From assembly GCA_020348445.1 (NCBI GenBank), contig CP070751.1:3681002-3745001 (forward strand): DNA of 64,000 nt, written 5' to 3'. A program made the position numbers and the translations under genes. The number at the start of each line of letters is the position of its first letter. The stretch's first letter is position 1. Of this stretch, positions 11,379 through 38,891 are shown piece after piece. The notes beneath the pieces were generated by a model that saw nothing but the letters and a program-made list of their open reading frames with translations, did not search any database and was not told where the DNA came from. The stretch comes from Thermoplasmata archaeon. Its GTDB lineage: Archaea; Thermoplasmatota; Thermoplasmata; GCA-020350865.

Positions 11379-14300
11379 GGTTCTTCCTCGGTCAGCAACG
11401 GTGGATCTTGAGGTGTGATTTGAGGGGCCATTGACTCTGTCGATTGTTCCCTTTGATACCCCATAGATGTATTATACTCACCTGAGGGTCCCTTAGGTGA
11501 ATACATATTTTCTTTTGGTTTTTTCTTCAGCATAAGAAGGAGCAGGAGTAAAACAACAATGACTACGATTATGATGATAATTGATAATAATAATAGAGGC
11601 GAACCTTCTGAATTTTTATCATCCGAGTCCATTTCTTTGACCTCGATTTCGAATGTGACACTTGTGAAATCCTTACCGTCCGAAAGCCTGACGGTCACTG
11701 TGTGTGTTCCGACCTGGCCTTCTTCTGGGGTCCAGGTGATGGTCCCATTACTCGAGATTTCCATGCCTTCTGGAGCTGAATCCAAACTGTATACAAGATT
11801 CGAAGCATCCTCTGGATCCAAATCTTGGCCATTAACTACCAGGGTTAAGTTCTCCCCGACCTTGATGGAATGATCAGCTATTGGTTCTAGCACCGGCGGA
11901 TTGTTAAAGGTTGCACTTTCATTTACTGTGAATGACCAAACCCCCTCTGGGCATATACCGTACTCTGTTCCATCATGGGGTATAACTGTCCAATAATAGG
12001 TTTCGCCCTTTTCAAGTGGGTCTGTGAGTTTAAATGTAGTTGTCGTTAGCTCTTCCCCGACCTTATTGGATGGATTCAAACCCTGAATATAGAGGAGATT
12101 CGTCCCTAAATATAAATCGGAGGTACAATCATCTCCATCCTCATCTGTTACAATCCAACTAAAGGTTGGATTCAAAACTTCAATTATAAAAGTATCTTTA
12201 GGGTATGTAAGTGATGTACTTGGTGGCAGGTTCTCTGATGGGCTTCTGACATCTATCTGGAAATCGTGATATATCATAATACTTTGATCCGTAGCACCGA
12301 TTTTGACCTGATAGAGACCAACACTTTCCGAAGAGAATTCAAAAAGACCTGAAGTCTCATTTAATGAGGCAGAATAAGTATTTCCACTAAGGGTGGATAT
12401 TTGTATCAATCGATATTCCATTCTATCAAATAAATCTTCATCGAAAGCGTTGATATCGAACTCATATGAATCACCCATTCTAATCAGTGTATTGGTTGGA
12501 GTGTCAATCCATTCTGGGGGATCGTTCGTATTCAATACATCCAGAGTGAAGTTACTTGAGTCCCAGCCTCCATTGCCATCCTCAACACTGATATTGACGT
12601 AATACACACCAACCTGCTCATTTATTGGGGTACCGTTTATGATACCTGTGATTGAATTGAATGATAGCCAGCTGGCATTTGTGGATACGTACCATGTTAT
12701 CATGCCTTGACCATCGTCATCGGAATCATAGTCTACAAGATATTCCGAATCCTCGTATGCATAAGTAGTATCGCCTGTGATGATTTCAAGGGGTGTGTTC
12801 AAAACATTTAACGTGAAGTTGTGTTCGTCGTAACCACTTGTTTCATTTGAGATATTTATCCTTACCCAGAACGACCCTACATCTGTATTATCTGGAATTC
12901 CATATATATCATGAGTTGTTTCATTCCATTCTAACCAGCCGGCATTGGTTTCGAAGACCCAAGTGTCGGCTGTTGCGTTTACAGACCAATAATGAGCATT
13001 GTACTGTTCATCCTCTGCTGCAGTTGGATTATCCTGTAATGGATAAAGGGTCATAGGGGGTGTATAGTTCAGCTTAGGAAAAATCAGGTAGACCTTTCCT
13101 TTATAGGAACTGTCCAATTCATGGTATGGGTGACCGATGAGAATATCATCATATCCATCGTCATTGAAGTCCCCCGCGGAACTCAACGAGTGGATAGATA
13201 TCCGTCCCCCTTCCCCTAAGAACGATGCATCTGCATCCGATAGATTCATATCCATGGACCAGCCAGAGGCATTACCCATGATTAGGTAGACTAGATCTGA
13301 TTGGTCTTCCCTCCAAGCTCCAATGAGGATATCATCAAAGCCATCTCCATCTACATCCCCAGCGCTGGAAAGTGAACATCCTGATAAATCCCCGGCAGCT
13401 TCTCCCAGAAAAGAAGCATCTGCGTTCGATAGATTAACATCCTCGCCCCATCCAGAAGTTTTACCGAATATAATATAGGTCTGGCCTGCATCCTCGCCTG
13501 CCTCGTCATTCTTGTAGGCTCCGATCAATATATCATCGAGGTTGTCTCCGTTAATGTCTCCTGCAGCAGCTACAGAATATCCAGAATAATCAAAGGCATA
13601 CTCCCCTAAAAATGTGACATTTACACTGGCAAGGTTCGTGTTCTTCTCCCAGCCTGAGGCGTTGCCGAATATTAGGTAGCTTTTACCCGCCTCGCCTCCG
13701 CTATCATCATTGCCACTAGCACCGATGAGGATGTCGTCGTACCCATCACCATTTACATCACCTAAAATCGCAATGGACTTGCCTGAACTGTCATTTGCAG
13801 ATTCCCCGATGAATGAGGCATCTGCATTTGATAAGGTGTTGTCCTTTGACCAACCAGTGTTGTTACCAAAAATAACATAGGTTTGACCTGAATATGGGCC
13901 GTTATCATCATTCTTGCGAGCGCTAATGATAACGTCATCAAAACCATCATTATTGATATCACCTGAACCTGACACGCAAAAGCCTGCTTCATCGTCAATG
14001 CCAACTCCAATGTAAGAGGCATCGACGTTGGATAGGCTTGTACCCATGGCCCAACCCGAGCTTTTGCCAAATATTAGATAGGCCTGTCCTGCATTAAATC
14101 CTCTACCATCATTACCTCTTGCACCAATAATCATATCATCGAATCCATCACCGTTTACATCGCCTGCAGCTGCAACTGAAAAACCGGCGTCAGAAAATAT
14201 ATGTTCTCCAAAAAACGAAGCGTCTGCCTCTGCAAGGTTCATATCCGGGGTCCAGCCCGAAGATTTCCCGAATATCAGGTAGACCTGGCCCTCGTCCCAT

Positions 14301-14533
14301 TCACCTCTGCTAGGAGCACCGATTATTATGTCATCATATCCATCTCCGTTCACATCACCTACACCTGCAACTGAAAAACCTGCATGATCATCTGGACTTT
14401 GGCCCACATACGAAGCTCCCATAATGGAAAGATCTGTGTTCCTTGAATATCCAATTGCCTCGGATGGAACCGAGATAAAACTTATTGAAACTACAAACAA
14501 AATTATCATCAATAATACAGTCATATTTTTCAT
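11375..14533 (-). CDS. FG-GAP (integrin-alpha-like) seven-bladed propeller with cadherin-like/Ig domains and C-terminal TM
   Basis: Seven GDVNGDGxDDxxIGA repeats; ED...TNAxWL...GTP...VG.Y.VNISV.DG Ig units; likely ATG 14533 after GGTGA (the track ORF starts at 14590); 4-nt overlap with the downstream gene. Confidence 0.88.
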   Translation of the reverse strand: MKNMTVLLMIILFVVSISFISVPSEAIGYSRNTDLSIMGASYVGQSPDDHAGFSVAGVGDVNGDGYDDIIIGAPSRGEWDEGQVYLIFGKSSGWTPDMNLAEADASFFGEHIFSDAGFSVAAAGDVNGDGFDDMIIGARGNDGRGFNAGQAYLIFGKSSGWAMGTSLSNVDASYIGVGIDDEAGFCVSGSGDINNDGFDDVIISARKNDDNGPYSGQTYVIFGNNTGWSKDNTLSNADASFIGESANDSSGKSIAILGDVNGDGYDDILIGASGNDDSGGEAGKSYLIFGNASGWEKNTNLASVNVTFLGEYAFDYSGYSVAAAGDINGDNLDDILIGAYKNDEAGEDAGQTYIIFGKTSGWGEDVNLSNADASFLGEAAGDLSGCSLSSAGDVDGDGFDDILIGAWREDQSDLVYLIMGNASGWSMDMNLSDADASFLGEGGRISIHSLSSAGDFNDDGYDDILIGHPYHELDSSYKGKVYLIFPKLNYTPPMTLYPLQDNPTAAEDEQYNAHYWSVNATADTWVFETNAGWLEWNETTHDIYGIPDNTDVGSFWVRINISNETSGYDEHNFTLNVLNTPLEIITGDTTYAYEDSEYLVDYDSDDDGQGMITWYVSTNASWLSFNSITGIINGTPINEQVGVYYVNISVEDGNGGWDSSNFTLDVLNTNDPPEWIDTPTNTLIRMGDSYEFDINAFDEDLFDRMEYRLIQISTLSGNTYSASLNETSGLFEFSSESVGLYQVKIGATDQSIMIYHDFQIDVRSPSENLPPSTSLTYPKDTFIIEVLNPTFSWIVTDEDGDDCTSDLYLGTNLLYIQGLNPSNKVGEELTTTTFKLTDPLEKGETYYWTVIPHDGTEYGICPEGVWSFTVNESATFNNPPVLEPIADHSIKVGENLTLVVNGQDLDPEDASNLVYSLDSAPEGMEISSNGTITWTPEEGQVGTHTVTVRLSDGKDFTSVTFEIEVKEMDSDDKNSEGSPLLLLSIIIIIVVIVVLLLLLLMLKKKPKENMYSPKGPSGEYNTSMGYQREQSTESMAPQITPQDPPLLTEEEP

Positions 14534-15184
14534 GGAATCACCATCAATTTTGTTAATTCCGCCTACAAATCGCTGTACGCTTTTCATCAATTAACTCTAT
14601 TGAAGTTTACTGTATATAAGAAGATTTGTACACTTTTTTTAAAAAATGATAAAAAAGAACAGTCATTATTTTTCCTTCTTTTAGTCCCCTTCCGATTGTT
14701 TATCTATTATATAAAATGTAATAAACATAAAAATACTTGGTATGAACGATTTTTACCAAGATATCCGTGGATAGCCCCTATTAAAACCAAACATAAAAGA
14801 TGCAATATAATGTTATTCCACTGGTCTATACATAGCATCTATGGTTAGGAAGCTTTTTGCGAACAGGTAAGCCATTTTGTCGTCTCTTTCTAGGAACAGT
14901 AGGAGAGCTCTGGTCACTGCATAAAGGACATCCATTGGATTTCAGTCTCCTTTTACCTCTATTTCTGCGTTTTGGAGGGTATTTCGCCCATTTAAGGGTT
15001 ATTACTCTTCAAATATTTTACTTTATCGCCAAATCCAGCACAAATCCAACAGTTAATAATAAATAATTTAGCATCAATATACATAAATTAGCAGTCATGT
15101 GAAGAATTAGCCCTAAATTGGAAATTGGCTGTATAAGGATGCTTTATTCTCTACATGAGGAGATGAAGAGAATGGGGGTTTATA

Positions 15185-17340: not shown

Positions 17341-18909
17341 ATGGCCTGCGTAAATTGTGGAATGCAGACCGAGACGGAGGTCTATATTTGCGAGAAATGT
17401 GAAAATGAAGAGAGTTCTCAGTTTCGCATTGGTGCCAGCATATGCATTTTTCCTTCAACTCTTAACAACATGATGCTCAGTTCATCCGACATGTTAGGGC
17501 TGGATACCGTAAGATCCACGGATTCTTTGAATCTCATTGTTGATATCAGTCAAGATAAACGCCTAATTGAAGAAGCAAGCTTTTCATTGGAAAACATGAC
17601 GGAAAGCGGCGTAAAAAACCAACAAAAGGAATTTGCTAGAATGTTAATCAACATGGGACTATCTCTGGATTTAGAAGAAAAAGTAAATCCCATCCTCCCG
17701 GAAAATGATTATTCTCTAGTAGAGAAGATATTGAAAGCAAATGAAGAACTCGAAAATAATTACCCGGGCATGCCAGATATAGAATTATACCTACTTATAG
17801 GGAGTCTGCATTATACGATCAGTTCTGTAAATAGCGGTATTATCACAGTTGCACAGAAAGAATATCATTTAAATAAGGCAGTGGAATATTTTGATAAAGT
17901 TCTGAGCACTGATAAGAATTCCACATCTGGTTGGAAGAACAAGGCGAAGGTGCTGCTAGAAAGAGGTGAATATGAAGAAGCCATCCAGTGTCTTAATTGG
18001 TTCCTCGATAATTTCGAACTAACAAGGGATAATCTGTCGGTGCTGATAAACAAAGGTATTGCTTTTTATAATTTAGGAGATTTAGACAAAGCCAGAGAAT
18101 GTTATGACAAGGTCATAGACAAGGATCCTGCAAATGTTGAGGCATGGCGCAGAAGGGGAGATGTTTTTGCTAAAATGGACAGGTGGGGTGGAGCTATCCA
18201 GTGCTATAATGAAGCCTTAAAACATGATCCAACAAGGGAGGATATATTGATATCCATGGCTGAAACCTATATCAACCACGGAAAATACCAGGAGGCATCA
18301 AAATGCCTTGATTCCGTGTTGAAGATAAATATCTGGAATACTGAAGCTTGGTACCTGCAAGGGATCGTTTTCTCAAAGATCGGCAGATGGGGTGCGGCAA
18401 TCCAGTGTTTGGATAAGGCCTTGAATGCCAATTCTTCACACATCAAAGCCTTGAAAGCAAAAGGGGACCTGCTTGTTGGTACAAATAGATTTGAGGATGC
18501 TATGGATTGTTATGAAAAAGCCCTGAAGATCCTGCCAAAAGACCCAGAAATCCTGATATCGAAGGGGAGATTATTGAAATTAATGAAAAGATATGACGAT
18601 GCTCAGAAGATAATCGAAGAGATCTTGTCGATAAATGAGGATGATCCCTTGGCGTTGTTCGAGAAGGGGGATATCCTTCAGGAAACTGGGAAGGCTTACA
18701 AGGCCCTAAAATGTTTTGATGATGCCCTTAAAACCGACCCTTCGATGGTAGAGGCATATTACAAGAAGGGCTTGACACTGGAGAAACTCAGGAGGTATAA
18801 AGAAGCAATACAATGTTACGACATGGCTCTTGAGCTGGATCCGAAGTTCGAAAAAGCACAGTTGGCAAAGAAGGACTGCCAGCTCAGGATGGATGGAAAA
18901 TCGGGTTGA
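17341..18909 (+). CDS. TPR-repeat protein with N-terminal zinc ribbon
   Basis: CVNCG...CEKC; about 10 TPR units (AWxxKG...GRWGGAIQCYxxAL). Confidence 0.9.
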   Translation: MACVNCGMQTETEVYICEKCENEESSQFRIGASICIFPSTLNNMMLSSSDMLGLDTVRSTDSLNLIVDISQDKRLIEEASFSLENMTESGVKNQQKEFARMLINMGLSLDLEEKVNPILPENDYSLVEKILKANEELENNYPGMPDIELYLLIGSLHYTISSVNSGIITVAQKEYHLNKAVEYFDKVLSTDKNSTSGWKNKAKVLLERGEYEEAIQCLNWFLDNFELTRDNLSVLINKGIAFYNLGDLDKARECYDKVIDKDPANVEAWRRRGDVFAKMDRWGGAIQCYNEALKHDPTREDILISMAETYINHGKYQEASKCLDSVLKINIWNTEAWYLQGIVFSKIGRWGAAIQCLDKALNANSSHIKALKAKGDLLVGTNRFEDAMDCYEKALKILPKDPEILISKGRLLKLMKRYDDAQKIIEEILSINEDDPLALFEKGDILQETGKAYKALKCFDDALKTDPSMVEAYYKKGLTLEKLRRYKEAIQCYDMALELDPKFEKAQLAKKDCQLRMDGKSG

Positions 18910-21900
18910 TCGATTTGGAAAAAAAGATCGCTGAAAAGAATATGCCGAATGCTGGCTTCGTAAATGCCTTAAATCGCATGGGTAGTGATACATTCGAGGA
19001 GCTTGTAAACAAATTAATGGGTTTTTTGGGTTTGGAAATAATTGCAGGCAATTTTGTAGACGATATATGTGATATTAAGGCCAGGGTCGGCGATAAGGTA
19101 AAAGATGCGGATTTTCCTTTATACCTCATCAGAATGTACAGAAGAGGAAATACGGTGTCCCCAGAGGATCTGCAGGATTTTGTTGGTCAGGGAAGAGATG
19201 GGGATGAGGGTTTAATGTTTTTTTCTACATCAAGTGTATCAGAGGATGCTAGGCTTTACGCAAAAGAATTCGATGTCGAGATCGTGGATAATAAAGCATT
19301 GGCAGCAATTTTGAAAAAATCGTACCTTCTACATGAGCTTTTGACCTATAGGGACAGGGAGATACTCAGAGAAGAAAAGGGAAGGTATTTACCAAGTATT
19401 GACGAGCTGGAGAACATAATCGAATCTGGAAATCGGGCATTCGCCAAAAGGGACTATTATGATGCTTTGAGTTATTTTAAAAAAGCCACGGATCTAAAGC
19501 CGAATTACGATGCGGCATGGTACATGAAAGGTTTGATATTCAACAATCTAAAGAGGTACCAGGAGGCTTTGGAAGCCTTTATGAAGGCTCTTGAGAGCAA
19601 CATCGAGAATGAGGAAGCATGGTACAGCTTGGGTCTCGTCTTGTACTCCCTAGGCAGATACGATGAGGAGCTCGAATGTTACGACAAAGCAATTGAATTG
19701 AAGAAGAACTTTTTCTCTGCATGGAACAACAAGGGTACAACACTTCTTCAGCTGGAAAGGTATGAAGAGGCCATCGAATGTTATGATGAGATTTTAAGGC
19801 AAAACCGAAACTTCAAGATGGCCCTGAACAACAAGGGCATAGCTCTTAAGAAAATGAAGAGAACTGATGAAGCCCTCGAGTGTTTTACAGAGGCCATAAA
19901 AATCGATGCTAATTATCAGGATGCTTGGTTTAACAAGGGTCAGATTCTTTTGGACAGCAAGCGATACAAAGAGGCCTATCATTGTTTCGAGAGGGTCCTT
20001 GCGTTTAATCCGGACAATATACAGGGCCTCTATGGAAAAGGCAGGTCTTTAGAGGGAGTGGGCCAGTTTAGCAGGGCTATTGAATGTTATGGGCGTATAA
20101 TCACCATCGATGCCAGATTTTACGCGGCAAAAAGGCGAAAAAAGAAGGCCCAGAAATCGCTTGAACAGAAAGGAGACTCACCAATTGATGAGGATTTCTT
20201 TAAAATAGATTTGGGCATGCAGGATGTATTTCAGATCATGCCTCATATACCTGAAAAAGAAAGAATTCTAGTGGAGAAAACTGTATCCATACCGGAGGTT
20301 TCCCTGAAAGAGGTAGAATCGAAATTAGAACCTACGTTCGTCTCAGAGCCAGAACCAAAACCCGATATCAAGGAAGTCGTTTCAGAAGAAAAGAAACCAT
20401 TGCCAGAAAGACAGGCACTAACAGCTGAGGCAAAAGCCCTTTCTGATATGAGACAGAAATTGGAGGAGAAAGAACTTGAATTAATCCAAATGGAGGACTG
20501 GTTAAAAGATAAATATGAGACCTTTAAGAAAGAGCGTCATGAAAGAGATGCATCTGCTGAGAATTTTGTTAGGGAAAGAGAGGTACTCCAAAGTGAAAGA
20601 GAGGCCCTGAAAAGAGAAAAAGCGAAGTTGATTGGGCAAACAAAAGGTGTGGCAAAGGCTAAGGAGAATATATCTGTAATAGAGAGCGCCCTATATGAAA
20701 AAGAAGAGGAATTGACCAAGCGTTACGAGGAAATAGAAAAAAATAACGAAAAGATACTCCAAAGGGAAAAGGAGCTGGAAACAGCCGCATTAAAGCTGAA
20801 GAAGAGGCAAGAAGATCTTGAGATGCAGGCAAAGATTCTGATGGATAAAGAAAGAAGTTTGCGCGAGGATGCAAGGATTCACATGGAGGTGGGAACAGAG
20901 GAAAAGCAGGTTTTTGATTTTGTTTCGGAAGTTGAGGAACCAGGTGAAAAGGAGCAAATGGCGGAGGAGGAACCTGAAGAAATAGAAATGGATGTGGAAA
21001 TAGAGGGGGTGGAAGAAGAAGTTGAACCCAAGGTTAAAGGCATTGAGCCAGAACCTCAAGTGGTGGCTGAAGAAGGAATTAGGGAACTTTTCATCGAAGG
21101 GGAGACAGTATTAGATAGGGAGGTTCTTGCACTGTACAGTCTAAGACGCTTTGATGAAGTCGATGAAAGAATTACCCAATCTTTCCAACAGGGATTTGAA
21201 TCCAAGCTCCTTTGGATATTAAAGGGTAATATCTTGCGGGAAAAAAGACAACTTGATGAAGCCTCAAGTTGTTATGAGAATGCCCTGAAATTGGATCAGA
21301 ATTATATTATTACCCTTGTGAACCTTATGTCCATAAACTATGAGCGCGGAGGGTATGAGGAAGCCTATAACTGGTGTAAAAAGATATTGGCACATAGACC
21401 GAAGGATGAGAAGTTCCTTTTAGAGAAAGCCCTTTTGGAGGCGAAGTTTGGGCAAATTGATGAAGCCATATCCACAATCGATAGTATTCTAGAAATCAAC
21501 AATAAACTTGAAGGGGTCTGGAATCTAAAGGGCATGATCATGTATAACTTGAATCGTGATGATGAGGCCATGGCCTGTTTTGATAGGGTGCTGCATATCA
21601 ATTCAACAAATTACACAGCATTGAACAATAAAGGAGTCCTATTGTATCATGGCAAGAAGCTGGATGAGGCAGTCGAGTGTTTTGATTCTGCCCTTGAAAT
21701 TGCACCTAATAAGCGGATATTGGAAAATAAGGATGCGATCCTAAAAGAATTAGACCAAATGAAAGAAGAAGAGGAAGTTGGTGAAGAGCACGCAGAACCA
21801 GGGATCATATCCACATTACTTGGGGAAATTGCTAAGCCCGAGCAAATTGGGGAGGGTGATGTTACCCAGGACTTGGAAATTGAAGAATCAAAGGCAGTTG

Positions 21901-22346
21901 GGGATGATGAGGGCGATATGTTGGATTTGGGGAGAGAGGGGGCAAAGGAAGCCGAGAGTTCCCTTTTCATGTGTCCTTCATGTGGCGCTTTTGTGAGCGA
22001 AACCGCGACAAAATGCAATAGCTGTGGTTATGATTTCGAATCTGAAGAAACAGAATTGATAGAAGAGGTCGAGGAGGTTGAAGAGGAAGAAGAATTTGAG
22101 GAACAAAAGGAAGATAAGGAGATATCAGAAGGGCGACCAAAGGATGAAATAATCAAAGATCTGATGAACATATCTGGTATCGGCCTTTCAAAGGCCAATG
22201 CTTTGTATGAAGCAGGTTTTCGAAGTATCGACGATTTGAGAGAGGCTCCAGTAACTGACTTGGCAGAGGTAAAGGGAATCGGTCGTACCCTCGCTAAAAT
22301 CATAAAAAAACGACTGGAGAGTAAGAAATTCAAGGAGGGGGAATGA
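18906..22346 (+). CDS. Multidomain protein: Mrr-like nuclease fold, TPRs, coiled coil, TPRs, zinc ribbon, HhH
   Basis: FEELVNKLM...FFSTSSVSEDARLYAKEFDVEIVD (Mrr_cat-like); TPRs; CPSCG...CNSCG; ISGIGLSKANALYEAGF...VKGIGRTLA. Confidence 0.85.
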   Translation: MIDLEKKIAEKNMPNAGFVNALNRMGSDTFEELVNKLMGFLGLEIIAGNFVDDICDIKARVGDKVKDADFPLYLIRMYRRGNTVSPEDLQDFVGQGRDGDEGLMFFSTSSVSEDARLYAKEFDVEIVDNKALAAILKKSYLLHELLTYRDREILREEKGRYLPSIDELENIIESGNRAFAKRDYYDALSYFKKATDLKPNYDAAWYMKGLIFNNLKRYQEALEAFMKALESNIENEEAWYSLGLVLYSLGRYDEELECYDKAIELKKNFFSAWNNKGTTLLQLERYEEAIECYDEILRQNRNFKMALNNKGIALKKMKRTDEALECFTEAIKIDANYQDAWFNKGQILLDSKRYKEAYHCFERVLAFNPDNIQGLYGKGRSLEGVGQFSRAIECYGRIITIDARFYAAKRRKKKAQKSLEQKGDSPIDEDFFKIDLGMQDVFQIMPHIPEKERILVEKTVSIPEVSLKEVESKLEPTFVSEPEPKPDIKEVVSEEKKPLPERQALTAEAKALSDMRQKLEEKELELIQMEDWLKDKYETFKKERHERDASAENFVREREVLQSEREALKREKAKLIGQTKGVAKAKENISVIESALYEKEEELTKRYEEIEKNNEKILQREKELETAALKLKKRQEDLEMQAKILMDKERSLREDARIHMEVGTEEKQVFDFVSEVEEPGEKEQMAEEEPEEIEMDVEIEGVEEEVEPKVKGIEPEPQVVAEEGIRELFIEGETVLDREVLALYSLRRFDEVDERITQSFQQGFESKLLWILKGNILREKRQLDEASSCYENALKLDQNYIITLVNLMSINYERGGYEEAYNWCKKILAHRPKDEKFLLEKALLEAKFGQIDEAISTIDSILEINNKLEGVWNLKGMIMYNLNRDDEAMACFDRVLHINSTNYTALNNKGVLLYHGKKLDEAVECFDSALEIAPNKRILENKDAILKELDQMKEEEEVGEEHAEPGIISTLLGEIAKPEQIGEGDVTQDLEIEESKAVGDDEGDMLDLGREGAKEAESSLFMCPSCGAFVSETATKCNSCGYDFESEETELIEEVEEVEEEEEFEEQKEDKEISEGRPKDEIIKDLMNISGIGLSKANALYEAGFRSIDDLREAPVTDLAEVKGIGRTLAKIIKKRLESKKFKEGE

Positions 22347-22374: not shown

Positions 22375-23253
22375 ATGACAGAATTCAAGGAAATAATGAA
22401 AAAAATGTGTGTAATCGGTGAGGCAGCTGCAGGAAAAACAAGCCTGATACGAAGGTTCGTGGTGGACAAATTCGACGATAAATACATTGTCACCATTGGG
22501 ACGAAGACCTCCAAAAAGATATTGACAATCAAAGACAAAGATGTCAATGTGAGCCTTAAATTGATGATTTGGGACATACTTGGCCAGAGTCATTTTGAAA
22601 AGCTAAAGCAATCGGCTTTTAAAGGCTCAAATGGAGCTTTTATTGTGTTGGATCTAACAAGAAAGGAAACCCTAGAGTCATTCGAGAAATGGCTTTCGTC
22701 ACTGTATAACGTGGTTCCAGGGATTCCTGTGATCATACTGGCCAATAAGAACGATTTGAAGATGGAATTTGGAGCCCAGGAGATTGAAGACCTCGTCAAG
22801 GACTATGGATTCCCGTATTATCTCACAAGCGCAAAAACAGGGGAGAATGTAAATGATGCCTTCTATACCATTGGAAAAATGATGATCGAGGGTTGGAAAT
22901 GTGCAGAAACGCAACCTTCATCTGAGATAAAAGAGGTCGCAGAAGAGCTTATCGATGAAGAAATGGTGCTGGATAAAGAGCTCACCGCAATAGAAGTTGA
23001 GGATATAATCATGGCGAGATATTGTGAGCTTCTCGAGGATCCAGAGTATGCAATGGCCATAATAAGGGAGCAATTTAAAAGAGCGGATGTGGATTTTAGG
23101 AATCCCACTCCACAGGGTCTTTTGAGGGTTGTGGAATTTATAATAAATGCTGCCGCAGATCAGGTCGAGGCCAGTAGGTTAAAGCATGAGAAGAAAACAT
23201 ATTCCGATCTGATCAGGATGATAGACCGACAAGATACTATCACCATAAGGTAA
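22375..23253 (+). CDS. Rab-like small GTPase 1 with C-terminal helical domain
   Basis: G1 GEAAAGKT, G2 TIG, G3 WDILGQ, G4 NKND, G5 TSAK. Confidence 0.92.
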   Translation: MTEFKEIMKKMCVIGEAAAGKTSLIRRFVVDKFDDKYIVTIGTKTSKKILTIKDKDVNVSLKLMIWDILGQSHFEKLKQSAFKGSNGAFIVLDLTRKETLESFEKWLSSLYNVVPGIPVIILANKNDLKMEFGAQEIEDLVKDYGFPYYLTSAKTGENVNDAFYTIGKMMIEGWKCAETQPSSEIKEVAEELIDEEMVLDKELTAIEVEDIIMARYCELLEDPEYAMAIIREQFKRADVDFRNPTPQGLLRVVEFIINAAADQVEASRLKHEKKTYSDLIRMIDRQDTITIR

Positions 23254-23285
23254 GATGATAATGCTTTGGTGCGGTGGTGATTAGC

Positions 23286-24116
23286 ATGAAGGAATATAAT
23301 AAGAAGCTCATTCTCCTAGGCGACGCAGCAGTGGGAAAAACAAGCCTTATTAGAAGGCTTGTCGTGGACCAATTTGACGATAAATATATATCGACTATAG
23401 GAACAAAAATCACCGCAAAAGAGCTACAAATCACAATTGATGAGGCAATAACCTACTTAAAGCTTCAAATCTGGGATATACTGGGTCAGAAGGGTTATAC
23501 AAAACTGCATCATAACAGCTTTCGCGGAACCAATGGTGTCTTTATGGTGGCAGACATAACAAGAAAGGATACTTTGCAAAGCCTCAAGAGCTATTGGATT
23601 CCAGAGGTGGAAAACCTAGTTGGTTCTGTCCCTTTTATCATATTGGCAAACAAATCCGATCTTATTGAACGCGCAGAATTTAATGAAAGCGAATTAAGGG
23701 AATTTGCATCCAAATACAAGGTACCATTCTATCTTACCAGTGCAAAAAACGGTGAGAATGTGAATAGAGCATTTCATAGACTTGGGGAAAGAATGTTAAA
23801 ATCCAAAGAAGCTGAGCCTGTAAAGCCTTTTATGCCAGTGGAAATTGAAATAGAAAAGAACGAGATCATAGAGCTTATTGACAGATTAATAGATGATTTT
23901 TGCAGGGAATATGGTAATCCTGAAGGGGCAATGCCTATTTTAAGAAAACAGTTCGAACTCGCAAAGTTCGATCCCAACCACCCAACACAGGAGGCCATAA
24001 TATCGGCTATTGAGAGATTGGCGAGTTTTGAGATGGGCTTCAAGAAGAAGGAGATTGCAGAGACAAATCTCCTAAAAAGACTCAGGTGGATCAAAGAAGT
24101 CAAATGGAATGGATGA
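23286..24116 (+). CDS. Rab-like small GTPase 2 with C-terminal helical domain
   Basis: GDAAVGKT, KLQIWDILGQ, NKSD, TSAK; ATG 23286 lies 5 nt after GGTGA (the track ORF starts at 23274). Confidence 0.92.
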   Translation: MKEYNKKLILLGDAAVGKTSLIRRLVVDQFDDKYISTIGTKITAKELQITIDEAITYLKLQIWDILGQKGYTKLHHNSFRGTNGVFMVADITRKDTLQSLKSYWIPEVENLVGSVPFIILANKSDLIERAEFNESELREFASKYKVPFYLTSAKNGENVNRAFHRLGERMLKSKEAEPVKPFMPVEIEIEKNEIIELIDRLIDDFCREYGNPEGAMPILRKQFELAKFDPNHPTQEAIISAIERLASFEMGFKKKEIAETNLLKRLRWIKEVKWNG

Positions 24117-24366
24117 TACAATATTCATTTCTTGGTAAGAATTTTCAAATAATTTCACTGATATTTTTAAAGGTATCATTATTTCCTTATTCTTTATTAT
24201 CAAACCTGATTTTATAGACAAAAATATTTAATCGACTTCTGTCTGTATTAAATATTGTAATCCTATATTGAATGATTTGGGTAATTAAACACAGGCAAAC
24301 AAGATGATATTTATCTTTGACATCAAACATGTCAATTGCATAAGAAAACCTTCCTGAGGCATTAAA

Positions 24367-25221
24367 ATGACTGAAGTTATTGAGATTATGAAGAAGATGT
24401 GTGTAATTGGTGAGACATCAGTGGGCAAGACAAGCCTGATACGAAGGTTCGTGATTGACAAATTCGATGACAAATACATAGTCACCATCGGCACAAAAAC
24501 CTCCAAAAAAATACTGACTATCAGAGCTGATGATGCCAATGTGAATCTAAAATTGATGATCTGGGATATACTTGGCCAGAGTCACTTTGAAAATATTAAG
24601 GAGTCCGCTTTCAAGGGTACAAACGGAGCCTTTATTGTATTGGACCTCACAAGAAGAGAGACCTTAGAGTCATTTGATAGATGGCTCTCATCACTTTATA
24701 ATGTGGCCTATGGGATTCCCGTTATTGTATTGGCCAATAAGAGCGATTTACAGGTGGAATTTAGAGAGAGCGACGTTGAAGCACTCGTTAGGGATTATGG
24801 ATACCCGTATTTTATAACGAGTGCAAAAACTGGGGAGAATGTGAACAATGCATTCTACACCCTTGGGAAAATGATGGTCGAGGGTTGGAGATGTGAAGCC
24901 GTCCAATCCCTGTCCAAACCGGCTAGAACAACTGATGAGATAATCGAGGGCAACATGAATCTGGACAGAAAGCTTTCGGCAATAGATGTTGAAGACATAA
25001 TCATGGCAAGATACTGTGAACTTCTTGATGATCCGGAATTTGCTATGGCTATACTAAGAGAGCAATTCAACAGGGCAAATGTGGACTTTCGGAATCCAAC
25101 ACCAGAGGAGCTTTTGAAAGTTGTGGATTACATTATAGAAGCGGCCTCGAACCAGGTTGAGGCCTCTCGTTTAGAGAGGGAGAGGAAGGCCTATTCAACT
25201 CTCATCAGGATGATCAACTGA
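24367..25221 (+). CDS. Rab-like small GTPase 3, close paralog of GTPase 1
   Basis: GETSVGKT, WDILGQ, NKSD, TSAK; long stretches identical to 22375-23253. Confidence 0.92.
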   Translation: MTEVIEIMKKMCVIGETSVGKTSLIRRFVIDKFDDKYIVTIGTKTSKKILTIRADDANVNLKLMIWDILGQSHFENIKESAFKGTNGAFIVLDLTRRETLESFDRWLSSLYNVAYGIPVIVLANKSDLQVEFRESDVEALVRDYGYPYFITSAKTGENVNNAFYTLGKMMVEGWRCEAVQSLSKPARTTDEIIEGNMNLDRKLSAIDVEDIIMARYCELLDDPEFAMAILREQFNRANVDFRNPTPEELLKVVDYIIEAASNQVEASRLERERKAYSTLIRMIN

Positions 25222-25547: not shown

Positions 25548-28500
25548 ATGGGTCGATACGCGATGATACAAAATACAAAAAAGCCCCATAAAAATGCCAT
25601 AATCAAGATTATCTTAATGACTTTGGTACTCAGCAATGTAGTGATTCTTCCAATTTATCAACAAGTTCAGGCAAAAGAGCACTTGATAGAGGAGAACGAT
25701 GAAGAGGGAGTGGGGCAGGGGCTAGCTATTTATTCTAACTATAGACTGGCTCAGTGCTTTAATGCCACCAGTAATTATACCCTGAAAAGGGTGAGCCTTT
25801 TTGTAAATGATGAGGGTAGTATGGAGAGTACACTGGGTGTACAAATCTATGATAACGATGATAAGAGTGATGGGATTTCCGACAATGATGTACCTAATTC
25901 TTCAATTAGTCCTATGGTTGGTAACAACGGCCCTAATAATGAATTTACCTGGCTGGATTTTAAGTATTCGGTTCCCTTGACTGAGGGAGAGAGGTATTGG
26001 ATCGTGGCAGATTGTGGAGGTCCTGAGGGTGATGGTTACAGATGGAAGGATTCTGAGAATGATTCATATTCAGGTGGATATATCGCAAAGGAAGGCAATC
26101 CTGATTGGATTCTAGATACCTCCAACGACCTGATGTTCAGAGTTTTTGGGGAGTACGACAACGATGTTGGCGTGGAAGAAATAATAGCTCCTGAGCTACA
26201 GGAGTTGTACTTGGAGGCCAATGTCACAGCTATAATAATGAATTACGGTGTGAGCTCCCAGAGTGGCTTTGATGTGAGGTGCACTATATTGGCTCCAAAT
26301 GGTTCTGAGATATTGAATGACACAGAGACAATTGATACCTTGGGTTCTGACAAGATGACTGGATTAACTTGGTTCTTTACTCCTGTAGTTGAGGGCGTCT
26401 ATGCGATTACGGTAACAACACTTTTGGAAGGAGACGAATATAATATCAACAACGCAATAAGCATGAATATGAATGTTCAGAAAATGGCTGTACTTAAGCT
26501 TCACGCACCAATCGAAGTCACTGATAATTATGGCAACTGGCATGGGGATAAAGTACCTACAAATGACACCTGGCATACGAGCAGAAGGGAATTTATATGG
26601 AATGACACAGTCGGTGATGATAACGGCGATGGAGATTATACCTATCCAAATAGTACCCAATTCGAAGCCGGTTGTCTGGATATCACTGAATTTCGAGTGG
26701 CTGTGGATTATAATCGCCTCAATTTTAGAATTGAATTTGGAAGCATCGACGACGGCGTTGGAGATGGTTCAGATGGTTGGTTGGGTTTCAGCGAGCAGAT
26801 CATCGAGATTCTGATAGATACTGACAGGGACGGCACTGGCAGAGACGATACAATAAGGAACGCCAGACTTAAATTGGATAAGAGCATAGGATGGGAATAT
26901 GCACTCTGGGTAAATGGATGGAATGATGGGTACATCTTGGATGAGTCCGGGAATATGCCATTTGGTGTGCTAGCACAGGGCTCGCCTGAAACCAATGCAG
27001 TGCAAATCTCATTACCTTTATCTAACGGATTTTCTCCCGATTTCGAGGTTTGGAGATATGTGGTTCTTGTAGGGGCCCATCATAACAAAAGTCTCCCTTT
27101 TAATGTCCACGGCAGTAGATGCGGTTTTATGAGGGTAGATTCGCAAAATTCTACAGTCAGCGGAGGAGGAGGTGAGGATAAAAACGGCGCGGATTCCAAT
27201 GTCTATGATATGGTATTTGCATCTTTACAAAGCTCGCAGCTTGATGATTATGGAAGTGAAGATATATTATTAACAGAATTTACTGATACCATGGGCATGT
27301 CCGGTAGTGATATTTCAAGTTCCGAGTGGTGGGCCCAATCATTTACAGCCCCGTTCACCTGTCTGCTCTCTTCTGTGGATATCTTTGCTAAGGATGTTGC
27401 TCCAGACTCGATTATGATGGGGATAACGATATATGACAATAATGATATGGACAATTTTAATCCTGATGATGATTTACCGGGTTGGACGTGGTTATCTTCA
27501 ATAAATGGTACGGATTTTGGGACAGAATATGAATGGAAAAACGTGGAATTCTCAAATCCACCTGTAATCAGAGGTGGTGAGACATATTGGATAGTAGCAA
27601 AAAGTATGGATGAGTCTGGGAAAGGATACAAGTGGGGAAAGAATCAGAATACTCCCTGGGGCGGTGGTCATAGTGCAAGTTGGCATGGCAGTGACTGGCA
27701 ATTGGAAGATGGTGATATGCTGTTTCGGGCCTATTTTAGGAAATTGACAACAATCGATGCCCATCAACCGATATATTTTGCACCCATAGTTATCAACGAG
27801 ATTTATGTGAATGGCTCAGCTGATAAAGAATGGATCAATATCTTATATGATGGAACAGACTATGCTCCTCCATACTTGGATATGAACAATTGGACTTTAA
27901 CAGATCAGGATGGAAATATTTTTCAATTTGAGGATTTTACATTATACAACTACGATAGTGTCACAGTCCATTCCGGCTTTGGGGCAGACAGCGAAACCGA
28001 TCTTTTCTGGGGTAAATCTGTAGGGGTATGGGACGATTTCGGCGATGATGTTTTGCTCAATTCAAACTTTATCGTACCTGTAGATTTTATGAACTACACC
28101 GATGGCAACGAATTTGGCAATGATCCTCCTGTTGGAATGAATTGGGGGCCAGAAGACAACGAGAACCTTCCTATAAATCCTCACCGTCTCCAAAAGCTAT
28201 CCTTGAAAGTCGAAGGTGGAGATTACGATTTCTACAGGGATTGGGAGTTCGTTGCATTGGGTAATGTACAAGACAAAACCCTGTATTTTTTTGATGACGG
28301 AACTTTCGATTCACAAGATCCACATGATTTTATGAATACCACACCACCAATAAAAGTTGAAGTCTTAGATTTTGACGGGGATGGGAATCCTGGCTTAACA
28401 TTGAATAAATCTGCCCCACCTACAGATCCTCAAAGGTATCAGGAATTCAACCTCACACCCGTTCTGGCAATGGATTTCAAAATTGTTGATAATGTTTTAA

Positions 28501-31500
28501 TAGACCTCTGGTTTTTTGATTATGAAACAGGAGGAAAGGAAGCTCTTAAGGTAACGTTATATGATTGCAACACGACAATAAAAAAAGAGATTGCTAACGA
28601 AACAATATCATTTATCCTTGAGGATTCGGCGCAATGGTCGTTGATAAATATAATCATTTTTGATTTGGATTATACATTACGTAGTGGTCATTACCTAACT
28701 TTCCGTGTGATGATAGATTCATCATCAGAAAATGATCTAGTGCTGGCCTATAATTCCACAGAAGTACCCTCATGCATAAGAACCATCCCAACACGAACCT
28801 TTGTCAATGTGGATTGGGCTAAGACATATAACACCCTAGGACAAGAAAGTACGAGCTTTTCGATTGGTGAAGATGTAATAATCAAGGCGAATGTCTCGGA
28901 TCCTTTGGGCTCTTATGATATTTTTGGTGCGTACATTTCCATTACTCCACCAGGGGCGGGTTTGGAAGGTGCAGAAAAACCAATGACCTTGAAGATTACA
29001 GATCCAAGTAATCCATCAGCTTGGAAGTTATTCAATTATACATACAAGAATGCCAATAAAGCTGGCGAGTACACAGTGAGAATCAAGGGGATAGAATCAA
29101 ATGGTGTTATACATACCATCACAATATATTTCTATATCCTGAGAAATGAAAAACCGCAGCTTACAAACAAATCCCTCATTCCTTCCTCGGGTCTTGCATC
29201 AACGAGCTTCAATTTTACAATCAATTATACAGATTTAGAAAACCATCCCCCCGGTATTGTGACTGTGAATATCACGGGTCGTGGTACCTTCAAAATGGAT
29301 CCCCTGGACCCAGATGACGATAACTATACTGATGGAAATCTGTATTTTATAAATCTCACAGGCTTTGTGAACGGCACTTCATATTCTTATCATTTTGCAG
29401 CCAACGATTCAAAGGGCCTCTGGAACTATACCGACCCGTTCAATGGACCGTATGTATATAATACGCCGCCTGTACTTTCAGATTGGGGTCTAGATCCACC
29501 CGAAGGCTATGCCTCAACTGGATTCAATTTTACAGTTAAATACACAGATATAGACAACCAGACTGGAGTTGTCAAAGTGAATATCACTGGTTCTTCACCA
29601 CATGCAGGTAGTTATGAAATGCTTGAGGTTGACCCATATGATACAAATCGCACCGATGGTAAGTTGTATTATTTCAATTACACAGGTTTTTATAATGGCT
29701 CCTACAAACATCAATTTGCAGCATGTGATTCACAGACTTGGGTTAATACCTCGGAGTTATCGGGCCCGCATGTAATGAACACACCTCCATATTTCCGTAA
29801 AGGAAAGGTTTTACCAATAGAGGGTTATATCACGACAGAGTTCAAATACAGTGTTTTTTACTTTGATTTGGACAACCAGGCCCCAGGTAATATTACAGTG
29901 AATATCTCAGGACCATGGCATGCAGGCAGCTGGAAGATGATTGAGAAGGATACCCTAGATGAGTACTATGTAGACGGTAAGGAGTACTATTACACTTACA
30001 CTGGCCTTAAAATCGGCTCCTATTCATTTCATATTTGGGCCAACGACTCTCAAGGTTTAGGGGCCAACACCTCTGAGAGAGACGAACCCATTATACATAA
30101 TACTCGCCCAACACTTTCTGGTCATAATCTAAATCCCAAAGCCGGTGATGTTGGCGCTTACTTCAATTATACTGTAATTTATACTGACCTAGACAATCAA
30201 ACCGCAGGCAACATCACAGTAAATATTACAGGTCCCTCTTATGCAGAGAACCTCACGATGAATGCATTCGATCCTTTAGACACGAATTACACAGACGGTA
30301 AATTCTATTACCTCAATATTACATTATCCAATGAGGGAACCTATAACTACACCATCTATGCCAACGATTCAGACGGATTATGGGCGATTCCTATATTTGA
30401 TAGTGGCCCAAATGTGGGTAGCGATGCACCACCTCTGCTAACCCAGCCCATGGTGAATCCCGAGACAGGTTTTACCACAACGTGGTTCAATTTCACAGTG
30501 AACTTCACAGACTTTCAAAATGATTCAGCAGATGTTATTTTATTGAATCTATCAGGACCTTCTGGTGGTTTATTTACCATGTTCGAGGTGGATACAAGCG
30601 ACATGACCACAGAAGATGGTAAATACTTTTATCGTAATATTACCTGGTTAGAGAAAGGTATTTATTCATTCTATGTGGAAGGCAACGATACAAATGGTAA
30701 TTCTACTCAAAGCGCTGAGAGATATGTGCCCTTGGTAAAGAATACCCCTCATGAGTTGCTAGGAAGTTGCATCAACCAAAGTGAATACGGAGGCAGTTGG
30801 TTCAATTTTTCACTGGTTTATGTGGATACTGACAACGATCCGGCTGGCAGCGTGAATATCAACATTTCTGGTGTAGGTAATGTTACTATGTTAGAACTCG
30901 ATCCTTCTGATGTTATTTTTAGTGATGGTAAGGAGTACTATTACAACACAACTTTTTCAAAAGGGTCGTACTCATATCGCTTTGAGGCCAATGATACAGG
31001 TTTTAACAGGGTATGGAACTACACGACATTTGAGGATTTTACCCTCATAAACAACATACCAATTTTTTTATTACAAGATGTGACACCCCCAACAGGTTTT
31101 GGAGGAGAATATTTCAATTTCACTGTCACGGTTTTGGATTTTGACGGCGACACTCTTGAGGTATTACTTCACATCCAAGGAGATCCTGCAAGTCCTTATA
31201 CCATGCTAGAAGCAGATATGGCTGATACTGATACTACAGACGGTAAGATCTACTTCTATAACCTATCCTTTGAAAGAGGATCCTATAATTACACTTTCTC
31301 TGTTTATGATGGTGAGGAGCCTAATCAAACCAGCCCACTAACACTGATTGTGAAAAACAATCCGCCAGCGATAACCACCTCAGACATTACAAGCACCGAT
31401 GAAGACGATCTATACAGTGTGGACTACGATAACATCGACCTCGATGGAGATATAGTTACCTGGATACTAGATACGAATGCCACATGGCTCAATATAGATT

Positions 31501-34500
31501 CGGACACTGGTGTTTTAGAAGGCACCCCTACGAACCTTGAAGTTGGAAGTTACTATGTAAATGTCAGTGTGGATGATGGGTTTGGTGGTATCGACTTCCA
31601 TAATTTCACCTTGTATGTGATAAATACCCTACCACAATTTACCACGATACCAGATGAATATGCCCAGGAAGATTTCCTTCACCTGGATGATTTTAACTGT
31701 ATCGACGATGGACAAGGCAATATCGTATACTCTCTTCTTACAAATGCTTCTCGGCTTTCTCTTCATCCAGTAACAGGGCTTTTAAGTGGAACACCAGATA
31801 ACACAAATGTGGGATCTTATTGGGTGAAAGTCAGCGTAGATGATGGAAATGGGGGTATCGTTTCTGTAAACTATACACTCTGGGTAAATAACACCCCCCC
31901 GACAATTACCACAGATCCAGATCAAGTGGCAATCGAGGATTCATTACATCTCAACGATTTCACTTGCGATGATGATGGGGAGGGTGATATCACTTATTCA
32001 TTGGAGACAAACGCCACATGGCTCAACTTGAATCCCTCAACTGGAATTCTGAGCGGGATACCAAATAATACTCATGTGGGATCATACTGGGTCAATGTTT
32101 CGGTGGATGATGGAAACGGTGGAAAGGATTTCGTGAACTATTCCCTTTCTGTTCTGAACGTACAACCTATTATTACAATAACACCAGATGTTACAGCCCA
32201 GGAGGATTTTTTACATTCTGATAATTTTGATTGTACCGATGAGGGTCAGGGAAATATCATATATTCCCTCACCACCGATGCGACATGGCTTATGATAAAT
32301 CCTTCGACAGGCCTTTTAAATGGAACACCCAATAACACCCATGTTGGCTTTTATTTTGTCAATGTCACTGTTAATGACGGAAACGGAGGAATTGACAATA
32401 TCAATTACACCATCACAGTTATAAACACTCTGCCAACCATAACTACCATTCCCATTCCTGTTGTGACTCAAGATATCCCCTATCATGATGATATTGATTG
32501 CAATGATGATGGCCAGGGTACAATTATATATTCAATTGCCACAAATGCCACATGGTTCTTTTTCAATTCCACTACAGGCGAATTAAATGGCACGCCAAAC
32601 AATACCCATCTTGGATCGTATTGGGTGAATGTGAGTGTGACAGACGGCAATGGAGGCATGGATTTTATAAATTATTCATTGACAGTGGATGATGTAAACG
32701 ATCCTCCGATTATTACTACAACAAATATCGAATTTGTAGATGAGGATTCCCTATATTCAGTTGATTACGAGTACATCGATATTGACGATCCAGTTATGAC
32801 ATGGTCCTTGTACACAAATTCCTCTTGGCTAGATATCGACACAAGTACAGGTGTACTGTCAGGAATCCCACAGAACGATGATGTGGGCTCGTGTTGGGTG
32901 AATGTAACTGTAAATGACGGACGAGGAGGAACCGACTACACCAACTTCACAATAACAGTGAGCAACACCCCTCCGTCCATAATAAATACCCCTATAGAAT
33001 TCACAGATGAAGATGACTTTCATTTGGATGATTTTAATTGTGACGACGATTTTCAAGGTAATATAGTCTATTCGTTTATAACAAATGCCACCTGGTTAAA
33101 TATCGATTCCTTGACTGGAATAATAAGTGGGACTTCAAACAACACCCTTGTTGGATGGTATTGGGTAAATGTATCTGTTGAAGATGGAAATGGTGGAAGA
33201 GATTCTAGGAATTATACTTTAACAGTGTACAATACACTTCCTTTGATAACCACTACACCAGAAGAGGAAGCGTTCGAGGATACTCTACACGCCGATTATT
33301 TCATGTGCATTGATGACGACCAGGGCAATATCGTTTATTCCATGAAAACAAATGCAACATGGCTTGGTTTTGTTGCCGATAAGGGCATATTAAGTGGAAC
33401 TCCATATAACACTGAAGTTGGATGGTATTGGGTCAATGTAACAGTTAACGATGGAAACGGGGGTGTGGATTCCCTTAATTATACATTGACAGTACATAAT
33501 GTGCATCCTAACATAACTACGATACCCGATGCCACTGCTTCGGAAGATATACTCCACTTGGATAACTTCGATTGCGACGACGATGGCCAGGGCAACATCA
33601 TATATTCACTTGCAAGCAATGCAACTTGGCTCAATATAGATCCCATATCTGGTGTTGTGAACGTGGTCCCAATTAATCTTTATGTGGGTGAGTACTTTGT
33701 CAATGTCTCGGTTTCTGATGGGAACGGTGGAATCGACTTTGTCAATTATTCTCTTACTGTTTTCAATACTCAACCGCATATTACCAACACACCTGATGAT
33801 TTCGCAATTGAGGACATGCTTCATATAGATGATTTTAATTGTGATGATGATGGTCAAGGAAACATCACATATTATCTTGTCACGAATGCAACGTGGCTTA
33901 ATATTGATCCTGTTGAAGGCATTTTAAGCGGCACTCCCGACAATTCTCATGTAGGTTGGTTTTGGATCAATGTCAGTGTTAATGACGGTAATGGGGGTAT
34001 TGATTACAGGAACTACACATTGAACGTGTCAGACGTCAATGATCCACCTGTTATCACCACAATAGATCTTGAGTTTGCCCTGGAGGATTCCCTTTACTAT
34101 GTGGACTATGAATACATAGATGTAGACGACACAGCAGTTTCATGGTACCGTGACTCAAATGCATCATGGCTTACCATAAACTCCCAAACTGGTGAGCTTT
34201 CCGGTATTCCTGAAAACCATGAGGTGGGATGGTGCTGGGTCAATGTGACAGTCGATGATGGCAGGGGAGGCATAGCATTCTCGAACTTCACGATCACTGT
34301 AAACAATACGCCCCCTGCGATTACCAATACACCAATTGAACTTGTTGATGAAGACTTGACGTTTTTGGATGATTTTAACAGCAATGATGACGATCAGGGC
34401 AACATAATATATTCCATGGATACAAATGCGACATGGTTTGATATTGACAACATATCGGGTGTTTTAAGTGGACTTCCCAACAATAATCATGTGGGATGGT

Positions 34501-36887: not shown

Positions 36888-36933
36888 TTATTCAAACTGG
36901 ATAAATAAAAAGATGTTTTTAATGGTAAACTGT

Positions 36934-37239: not shown

Positions 37240-37283
37240 TTCATCAGCCTCTTATACCATATGTGCTATATCATTCCCTCTTT

Positions 37284-38075: not shown

Positions 38076-38230
38076 CTTCTTTACAACGCCCCCTTTGCGA
38101 ATTGGTAAATAAATAACTTCCATTAATAGTTTTGGAAAGCCTTTTTATCGATTGTCTTTATGCTGGGTATCCCAATTTATTGGATAACGTACTTATACCC
38201 TTAGAATATTAGGGTTTCGAGATTGAAAAC

Positions 38231-38881: not shown

Positions 38882-38891
38882 GTTTGAGGAT

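Follow-up and report, generated by a model that had tools for sequence, protein, structure and literature searches.

We analysed 64,000 nucleotides (nt) of a Thermoplasmata archaeon (assembly GCA_020348445.1, contig CP070751.1, positions 3,681,002 to 3,745,001), hereafter the window, in which three consecutive genes code for small GTPases that carry an additional C-terminal domain, hereafter the tail. A sequence-only reading had described them as tandem Rab-like GTPases in an apparently non-Asgard archaeon, and all three plus-strand open reading frames (ORFs) were indeed found intact at the positions it had given. The genes stand behind two genes for TPR proteins and ahead of a gene for a giant surface protein, in whose C-terminal part we identified a domain that we call X (positions within the window):

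17341..18909, plus strand: zinc-ribbon and TPR protein of 522 amino acids (aa), from a Pfam TPR match; it opens the co-oriented gene row
18906..22346, plus strand: multidomain TPR protein of 1146 aa, from Pfam matches
22375..23253, plus strand: GTPase copy 1, 292 aa, tail type A (ORF, Pfam Ras match), with the G domain at ~22375-22896, an acidic, predicted disordered linker at ~22897-22974 and the predicted four-helix tail at ~22975-23226
23274..24116, plus strand: GTPase copy 2, 280 aa, tail type B (ORF, Pfam Ras match), with the G domain at ~23274-23801 and the tail at ~23862-24101
24367..25221, plus strand: GTPase copy 3, 284 aa, tail type A (ORF, Pfam Ras match), with the G domain at ~24367-24888 and the tail at ~24967-25218
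25548..36365, plus strand: giant surface protein of 3605 aa (ORF; Pfam matches on the N-terminal 1000 aa)
35745..35810, plus strand: the single transmembrane helix of the giant protein, predicted from a hydrophobic stretch in the translation
35820..36221, plus strand: domain X, ~135 aa, probably Roadblock/longin-like and cytoplasmic (profile match with E 1.4e-43)

The listed start codon of copy 2 is GTG, and an ATG 12 nt downstream of it may be the true start.

Each of the three proteins matched the Pfam Ras model (PF00071) over the whole model, with E-values of 1.9e-34, 1.4e-37 and 3.2e-34 for copies 1, 2 and 3, and their scores of 118–129 bits against a cut-off of 21.6 place them in the Ras superfamily. 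Among the NCBIfam models only the generic small_GTP (TIGR00231) was matched, at 61–72 bits against a cut-off of 42.5, and the Pfam models Roc (E ~1e-26), Arf and Gtr1_RagA (~27–29 bits, which is above its cut-off) scored far below Ras. The motifs quoted in the sequence-only reading were recovered from the translations, namely a complete set of G1 to G5 (with G1 as GxxxxGKT, the switch-I Thr at T40, G4 as NKxD and G5 as SAK), the G3 Asp and the catalytic Gln within WDILGQ in all three copies, and the RabF-like segments KLQIW (exact in copy 2), AFKGS/SFRGT and IVLDLT/MVADIT. RabF2 is kept at four of five positions in copies 1 and 3, the equivalents of YYRGA and LVYDIT are partly kept, and that of IGVDF reads IGTKT. 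As had also been noticed, a C-terminal Cys prenylation motif is missing: the last six residues are free of Cys in every copy, and the same holds for all 51 sequences that we typed A, B or B0 by their tails, the sole exception among the 64 sequences longer than 255 aa being an untyped locus sequence. The 60 best distinct PDB sequences for copy 2 were all Rab, Ypt, Sec4 or the Thorarchaeota Rab 7EZB, with Rab1, Rab11 and the Thorarchaeota protein among the best and Rab1a first (E 5.8e-29, ~30% identity, a similarity and not a phylogenetic placement). The AlphaFold2 (AF2) model of copy 1 matched the folds of Rab1b, Sec4, the Thorarchaeota Rab and H-Ras with E-values of 1e-11 to 1e-13 and template-modelling (TM) scores by target of 0.72–0.79, H-Ras lying slightly behind the Rabs. 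Rab/Ras-like by sequence and fold is thus a fair description of the three proteins, in which "Rab-like" denotes resemblance only, because the prenylation Cys is absent and the RabF motifs are only partly kept; NCBI labels relatives of these proteins "Rab family GTPase".

Behind the G domain (residues 1–174 in copy 1), the AF2 model, built from a 61-sequence alignment, has a linker at residues 175–200 with a predicted local distance difference test (pLDDT) score <50 and a net charge of −7, followed by helices at residues 205–284, in agreement with the ~85-aa helical tail of the sequence-only reading. Folded alone with 42 homologues, the tail gave a four-helix domain with a pLDDT of 87.9 and a predicted TM score (pTM) of 0.78. 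Across 61 sequences A226, Q233 and P244 (copy 1 numbering) are invariant, and D210, I212, C217, M227, A237 and L256 are also conserved. Searches against Pfam and PDB and by fold returned no match for the tail and placed it in no characterised family. When 1.84 billion cluster representatives were searched with the tail using phmmer, only 40 proteins were found at E ≤1e-3, and most of the full-length matches were GTPase-plus-tail proteins of ~270–295 aa. The ESM Atlas yielded the same family, 79-aa archaeal hypothetical proteins and the bacterial DUF8082 (TM score 0.67), which we treat as leads only. A Roadblock domain was considered for the tail and rejected (hhalign probability 1.7%). We conclude from these models that the tail is a real extra domain with a confidently predicted, unnamed fold.

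As had been suspected, the host is not an Asgard archaeon. The SRP54 gene of the window (7566-8909) was compared with five genomes and matched CP070739.1 ("Methanomassiliicoccales archaeon bin396", a single 3.2-Mb record of the same GTDB genus) at 92% over residues 1–344 of 447, "Thermoplasmata archaeon SCS1bin.31" at 90%, two other chromosome-level Thermoplasmata at 67–68% and a Thorarchaeote at 43%. All 42 tail-bearing relatives from species-representative genomes belong to Thermoplasmata, Thermoplasmatota, Methanomassiliicoccales or older umbrella Euryarchaeota/Methanobacteriota records, and a tail profile search of one Thorarchaeote genome gave no match. As an aside, the SRP54 ortholog of CP070739.1 (C1:759039-760070, minus strand) matches residues 1–344 only and has an in-frame TAG inside an 861-aa open frame, a break that may be due to an insertion (e.g. 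an intein), a read-through codon or an assembly fault.

We also built a maximum-likelihood (ML) tree of 134 G domains (tails excluded, one Asgard genome, no eukaryotic sequences, quick search). All tailed proteins fell into one clade of 74 rows (support 83), the Thorarchaeote GTPases formed a separate clade of 34 rows (support 99) and the bacterial relatives stood apart. With this coverage the tree speaks against a recent Asgard transfer and is silent on deep origins. The assembly itself is a metagenome-assembled genome (MAG) in which 100-N spacers link 354 contigs, and the window takes up the first 64 kb of a contig of 141.5 kb; the 5.16 Mb of the MAG compare with 2.3–3.7 Mb in congeners, and it may hold more than one strain, so that its gene counts are upper bounds. 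Fragmentation and excess size of this kind could point to Asgard mis-binning as the source of the genes, which, like recent transfer from Asgard archaea, we nevertheless consider hardly credible: the SRP54 gene with its Thermoplasmata affinity lies on the same contig, orthologous loci are present in the single-record chromosome assembly CP070739.1, the Thorarchaeote GTPases keep to their own clade, and the tail is missing from the Thorarchaeote genome.

The trio belongs to an expanded family. PF00071 matches numbered 34–35 in the host MAG, 26–27 in CP070739.1 and 23–30 in the other species of the genus (23–34 Ras-family genes per genome in the genus), compared with 12 in the other, sister family of this six-species order, five in each of two 2-Mb Thermoplasmata and 58 in the Thorarchaeote. 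In the host genome 18 of the GTPase genes are tailed and ~17 are short. The count of the MAG is possibly inflated, but the expansion is real because the single-record CP070739.1 shows it too. In an even sample of 50 other Thermoplasmatota genomes (≥85% complete; PF00071 at E ≤1e-25), ten carried 1–12 Ras-family genes and 40 carried none, among the latter all seven sampled genomes of the host's own class, and the tail profile matched in three of 120 other genomes sampled from the phylum. A 2016 study reported one Rab-like protein each from a Thermoplasmatales archaeon and from Aciduliprofundum and remarked that the C-termini of archaeal Rab-like proteins are short (PMC4915359). We found no published description of the tail, its A and B types, the Thermoplasmata expansion or domain X in a literature search of incomplete coverage, which does not prove their absence. 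A different array design was seen in the sister family (L077, G010 C53:7345-10051; L and G numbers are our labels for loci and genomes), where four short tail-less GTPase genes in tandem are followed by a gene for a V4R protein.

The tails are of two types, A in copies 1 and 3 and B in copy 2, and the small Thermoplasmata genomes hold a B-like form. In the ML tree the two types formed clades of 16 rows (A, SH-aLRT support 97) and 20 rows (B, 99), joined with a support of 97. As the tree was built without the tails and still separates the two types, the tail has evolved together with its G domain. A and B are old paralog types that stand side by side in arrays: all eight examined arrays of 2–7 tailed genes are mixed. 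The catalytic Gln is present in 20 of 20 B sequences and in only six of 17 A sequences, the others having Leu (eight), Val (two) or Arg (one), and the six A sequences that retain Gln all belong to this TPR locus or to its relatives. Where A genes stand in arrays behind giant X proteins, the motif is WDIxGL/V (C1:3131528-3137291 of the host genome; L005-L008). Sister clades, arrays that always hold both types, and a distribution of the Gln such as is expected of asymmetric pairs would suit a scheme in which A and B heterodimerise through their tails, much as RagA/B and RagC/D pair by their C-terminal domains, with A often dead for hydrolysis, the TPR scaffolds as the main partners and the giant protein a neighbour and nothing else. 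We regard this scheme as the main alternative to the reading proposed below but as clearly less likely, given that mixed arrays would arise by chance with p ~0.1 and are related by descent, that A genes can stand alone (L003, L004) as can B genes (L009, L010), that the small genomes have the B-like form only, and that both A copies of the window keep the Gln.

Copies 1 and 3 are close paralogs (73% identity overall, 79% in the G domain) from which copy 2 diverges (44% identity to copy 1), as had been read from the sequence; in the tree copies 1 and 3 are mutually closest and group with the A gene of the related locus L001 (support 98). Their DNA similarity, at 73–80%, is confined to the coding region, and we therefore rejected a recent duplication that included the flanks. 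At the orthologous TPR-TPR-GTPase locus L003 and L004 have a single A gene each, L001 has both A and B (at least two genes) and the window has A-B-A, so that the local paralog expansion proposed earlier is borne out by copy numbers of one, at least two and three. The sequence-only reading had gone on to propose a switch cascade; on the pattern of Rab cascades, the three proteins would act in sequence, each GTPase recruiting the activator of its successor. The tandem arrangement and the divergence of copy 2 are what points that way; with no GEF or GAP gene (guanine nucleotide exchange factor or GTPase-activating protein) between the copies, near-duplicate copies 1 and 3 that fit redundancy or dosage better than distinct steps, and a copy number that varies from one to three among species, a cascade seems to us improbable.

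The likely partner of the GTPases, which the sequence-only reading had not included, is the putative Roadblock/longin-like domain X of the adjacent giant protein. This protein begins with a signal or anchor, contains a Glucodextran_C domain and repeats of the lamin-tail and Ig-like kinds, and has near its C-terminus a single predicted membrane helix that is followed by a cytoplasmic tail; a 54% identical ortholog lies at the same locus in CP070739.1 (G001). The CP070739.1 "chromosome" is not gap-free, as it contains ~100 N in the 3' end of this ortholog (L115, C1:929500-949400, near 9800-9900). According to BLASTP and profile searches, X adjoins GTPase genes in about half of 50 related loci, and its carriers are giant surface proteins, zinc-ribbon-TPR proteins and a 194-aa protein with two transmembrane segments, which is encoded directly upstream of a tailed GTPase in at least 11 genomes. 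Outside the archaea X was also found in two Saprospiraceae. The host genome has 21 copies of X and CP070739.1 has ten; in the host, seven of 26 GTPase units lie ≤10 kb from an X, compared with 1.7 expected by chance (p ~0.002). In the 50-genome phylum sample the occurrence of X coincided fully with that of Ras-family genes: all ten genomes with such genes (seven of 28 families) have X, and the 40 others lack it. An alignment of X, compared by hhalign with 22 PF03259 (Roadblock/LC7) proteins, gave a probability of 88% with E 3e-6 over 99 columns, while reversed or shuffled controls reached ≤0.5%, and ≤1.7% with unrelated ones included. Single-sequence searches of Pfam and PDB gave weak hints (Fuz_longin_1 at E 0.02, Robl_LC7 at E 0.064, MglB). 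The sequence pattern of X, which runs through two strands, a helix, three strands and two helices and lacks a helix at the N-terminus, agrees with the definition of the longin variant in PMC10933270, and X is probably Roadblock/longin-like. Elsewhere in the host genome (C1:555382-558807), a single open frame of 2181 aa contains three X copies, i.e. three modules on one protein.

The tail is also encoded as separate genes of 106–113 aa. One such gene heads an operon in which it is followed by genes for a 1635-aa X protein, a tail-less GTPase and a V4R protein, an order that recurs in another species of the genus (L080); at a third locus (L081), which is truncated, the sequence ends within the giant gene that comes after the tail gene. 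Another stand-alone tail gene lies ahead of genes for two proteins of ~937 aa that contain X and for a tailed GTPase. This occurrence in fused and in separate form ties the tail to the GTPase-X system. A stand-alone homolog of 99–152 aa was in addition seen in at least four genomes near radical-SAM, MTA-phosphorylase-like and amidohydrolase genes and with no GTPase nearby (C1:684635-684955 in the host genome; L078, L079, L083, L084), Nre genes also being among these neighbours, which are uninformative. That the tail might replace prenylation by placing its basic, Trp-bearing last helix on lipid is a proposal to which we give little credence. No C-terminal Cys is available, the last 30 residues have a net charge of +1 to +4 compared with the acidic linker, and in B types a K/R-rich motif that includes a conserved Trp is retained, all of which would suit membrane targeting; yet AF2 packs the last helix into the bundle with pLDDT >90, the whole A-type tail has a net charge of −4, and the stand-alone form argues for a protein–protein module.

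Given these observations, we propose that the three genes encode Ras-superfamily switches of a Thermoplasmata-specific family which are receptor-anchored at the membrane and dock on domain X, a reading to which we assign a probability of roughly 55%. According to this model, the G domain, joined by a flexible acidic linker to its family-specific four-helix domain, would act at the cytoplasmic face of the membrane, where the giant surface protein would present X just inside the membrane. X would dock and regulate the GTPases as an anchor, GAP or GEF, by analogy with MglB, Ragulator and the longin GEFs and GAPs, the two upstream TPR proteins could be scaffolds or effectors, and the tail may be an adaptor that either tethers the G domain to the X platform or pairs A with B. 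The analysis itself shows the genes with their motifs and fold, the taxonomy of the host, the expansion, the A and B types, the links to domain X by gene neighbourhood and by phylogenetic profile, and the separate tail genes; binding, any GEF or GAP activity, the way in which signals run and what the tail does are inferred.

Several observations weigh against this reading. X lies 11–13 kb from the trio, at the far end of the next gene, and the orthologous A-type gene of L003 has no giant neighbour; in CP070739.1 the ~100 N mask the end of the giant gene, and with it whether X is present there. The gene row itself is probably not a single unit: the TPR genes overlap by 4 nt and are followed by gaps of 28 nt to copy 1 and a further 20 nt to copy 2, AT-rich spacers of 250 nt and 326 nt precede copy 3 and the giant gene, and an oligo-T run follows copy 3. 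This tight packing of the first four genes, together with the AT-rich spacers, makes more than one transcript likely, and copy 3 and the giant gene probably have promoters of their own. The co-occurrence of X and Ras-family genes effectively counts seven families and not ten genomes, because related genomes are not independent, and the fold of X draws on the hhalign probability of 88% and the weak Pfam hints. Finally, GTPases without a tail are found together with X as well, so that the link between GTPase and X does not depend on the tail, and some stand-alone tail genes sit among housekeeping genes.

A broader proposal, which we regard as tentative and short of probable, is that a Thermoplasmata lineage independently built a large small-GTPase network in which giant receptors, STAND ATPases and TPR proteins would present a membrane-proximal X platform that recruits paired A/B GTPases through the four-helix adaptor, as a functional analogue of Rag-Ragulator and longin-GEF systems outside the Asgard-eukaryote line. 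Large Rab/Ras-like families with longin/Roadblock regulators serve as an Asgard hallmark and as evidence that the membrane organisation of eukaryotes has archaeal roots. The finding of 23–34 such genes per genome in another archaeal lineage shows that these networks can grow without a link to eukaryogenesis, and it calibrates how gene counts are to be read. To its GTPases this lineage has added a domain of its own, and they co-occur strictly with a putative Roadblock/longin-like partner that in many cases is part of a giant surface protein. Being compact, the system could be tested as a receptor-GTPase pair; each switch has an identifiable neighbour, and the tail is suited to structure determination.

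Among known systems, the Asgard Rab-like GTPases (Thorarchaeota Rab 7EZB; PMC4915359; PMC10933270) are alike in being archaeal, in having a single G domain that is nearest to Rab by sequence and fold, in the DxxGQ motif, in the missing prenylation Cys, in the multiple copies per genome and in their presumed Roadblock/longin partners. They differ in their short C-termini (PMC4915359, PMC10933270), where the proteins studied here have the predicted 85-aa four-helix domain, in their higher Pfam Ras scores (140–181 bits in the Thorarchaeote compared with 95–136 here), in their separate clade in the tree and in the host, which is here a Thermoplasmata archaeon. The eukaryotic Rab1/Ypt1, Rab8 and Rab11 provided the best PDB sequence and fold matches, and their RabF2 motif KLQIW is exact in copy 2. 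In contrast to eukaryotic Rabs, the three proteins lack a C-terminal Cys and a hypervariable region, keep RabF1, F3 and F4 only in part and are nearly as close to H-Ras by fold, and nothing in them points to an endomembrane role.

Previously described prokaryotic families were considered and rejected. MglA of the MglA-MglB systems of Myxococcus and Thermus is likewise small and Ras-like, and the product of the gene next to it, which regulates it, has a fold of the Roadblock type; but MglA lacks the G3 Asp, with Thr in its place, and the arrangement of the catalytic Gln seen in WDILGQ, and no PF03259 gene adjoins the trio, the six PF03259 matches of the host genome all lying away from it. MglB, for its part, is a small soluble dimer, unlike X, which would be membrane-anchored or lie within giant or TPR proteins and is longin-like by its pattern (no N-terminal helix, extra C-terminal helices). 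The three proteins qualify as Rup if the name is used loosely, for any Ras-like GTPase of prokaryotes that is not MglA. Groups 1 and 2 of the Rup family were rejected, as the proteins are 280–292 aa long with an extra domain, have the Gln and a Thermoplasmata host, and their bacterial relatives cluster apart; Group 2 is crenarchaeal (PMC4316618). Bacterial Group 1 Rup proteins (PMC4316618) resemble them as non-MglA GTPases encoded beside an uncharacterised conserved domain that is often membrane-anchored, and at the Saprospiraceae loci L046 and L048 a relative of domain X adjoins the GTPase; unlike the trio, they lack the catalytic Gln (K or E in four bacterial examples), are single-copy and have no tail. 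The 2014 survey of prokaryotic Ras-like GTPases left out proteins >240 aa (Wuichet & Sogaard-Andersen, PMC4316618).

Two further families combine a Ras-like G domain with a C-terminal domain. ROCO proteins (Roc-COR) were rejected since the tail, with 85 residues and a predicted four helices, gave no COR match, none of the 42 tails matched a Pfam family at E 0.02, and LRR and kinase parts are absent. The likeness to Rag/Gtr GTPases on Ragulator goes further, with two paralog types, a non-GTPase domain behind the G domain and a membrane-anchored Roadblock platform, and the G domains studied here score above the cut-off of the Pfam model Gtr1_RagA as well. In Rag, however, a Roadblock domain forms the C-terminal part, and we rejected membership because the tail is an all-helical, predicted four-helix bundle (1.7% in hhalign against Roadblock); moreover, the Ras model scores far above Gtr1_RagA, and a heterodimer is here hypothetical.

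With regard to the upstream neighbours, the 522-aa TPR protein has an ortholog in the same position at the related loci L003 and L004 (52–57% identity), and orthologs of the 1146-aa TPR protein are encoded directly upstream of the A-type GTPase in L003, L004 and L001. The latter protein comprises an Mrr_cat-like N-terminus, TPRs, a coiled coil, a zinc ribbon and HhH. Its TPRs also score above the cut-off of the Pfam PPTA model (prenyltransferase alpha repeat), its coiled coil is long and acidic, and the HhH motifs form a C-terminal pair; a mix with a restriction-endonuclease-like Mrr_cat part is odd for a gene kept directly upstream of a GTPase.

Neither Rfam families nor tRNA genes were found when the window was scanned for them. 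Directly downstream of the giant gene (36474-41126) lie a hydrogenase maturation set, comprising a NikR-like regulator, a HypB-type GTPase and HypF, and TatC. On the minus strand at 9639-14590, a gene encodes a NosD/beta-helix protein with C-terminal HVO_0163-type and MarR-type HTH domains, and it adjoins a gene for a 1071-aa FG-GAP/He_PIG surface protein.

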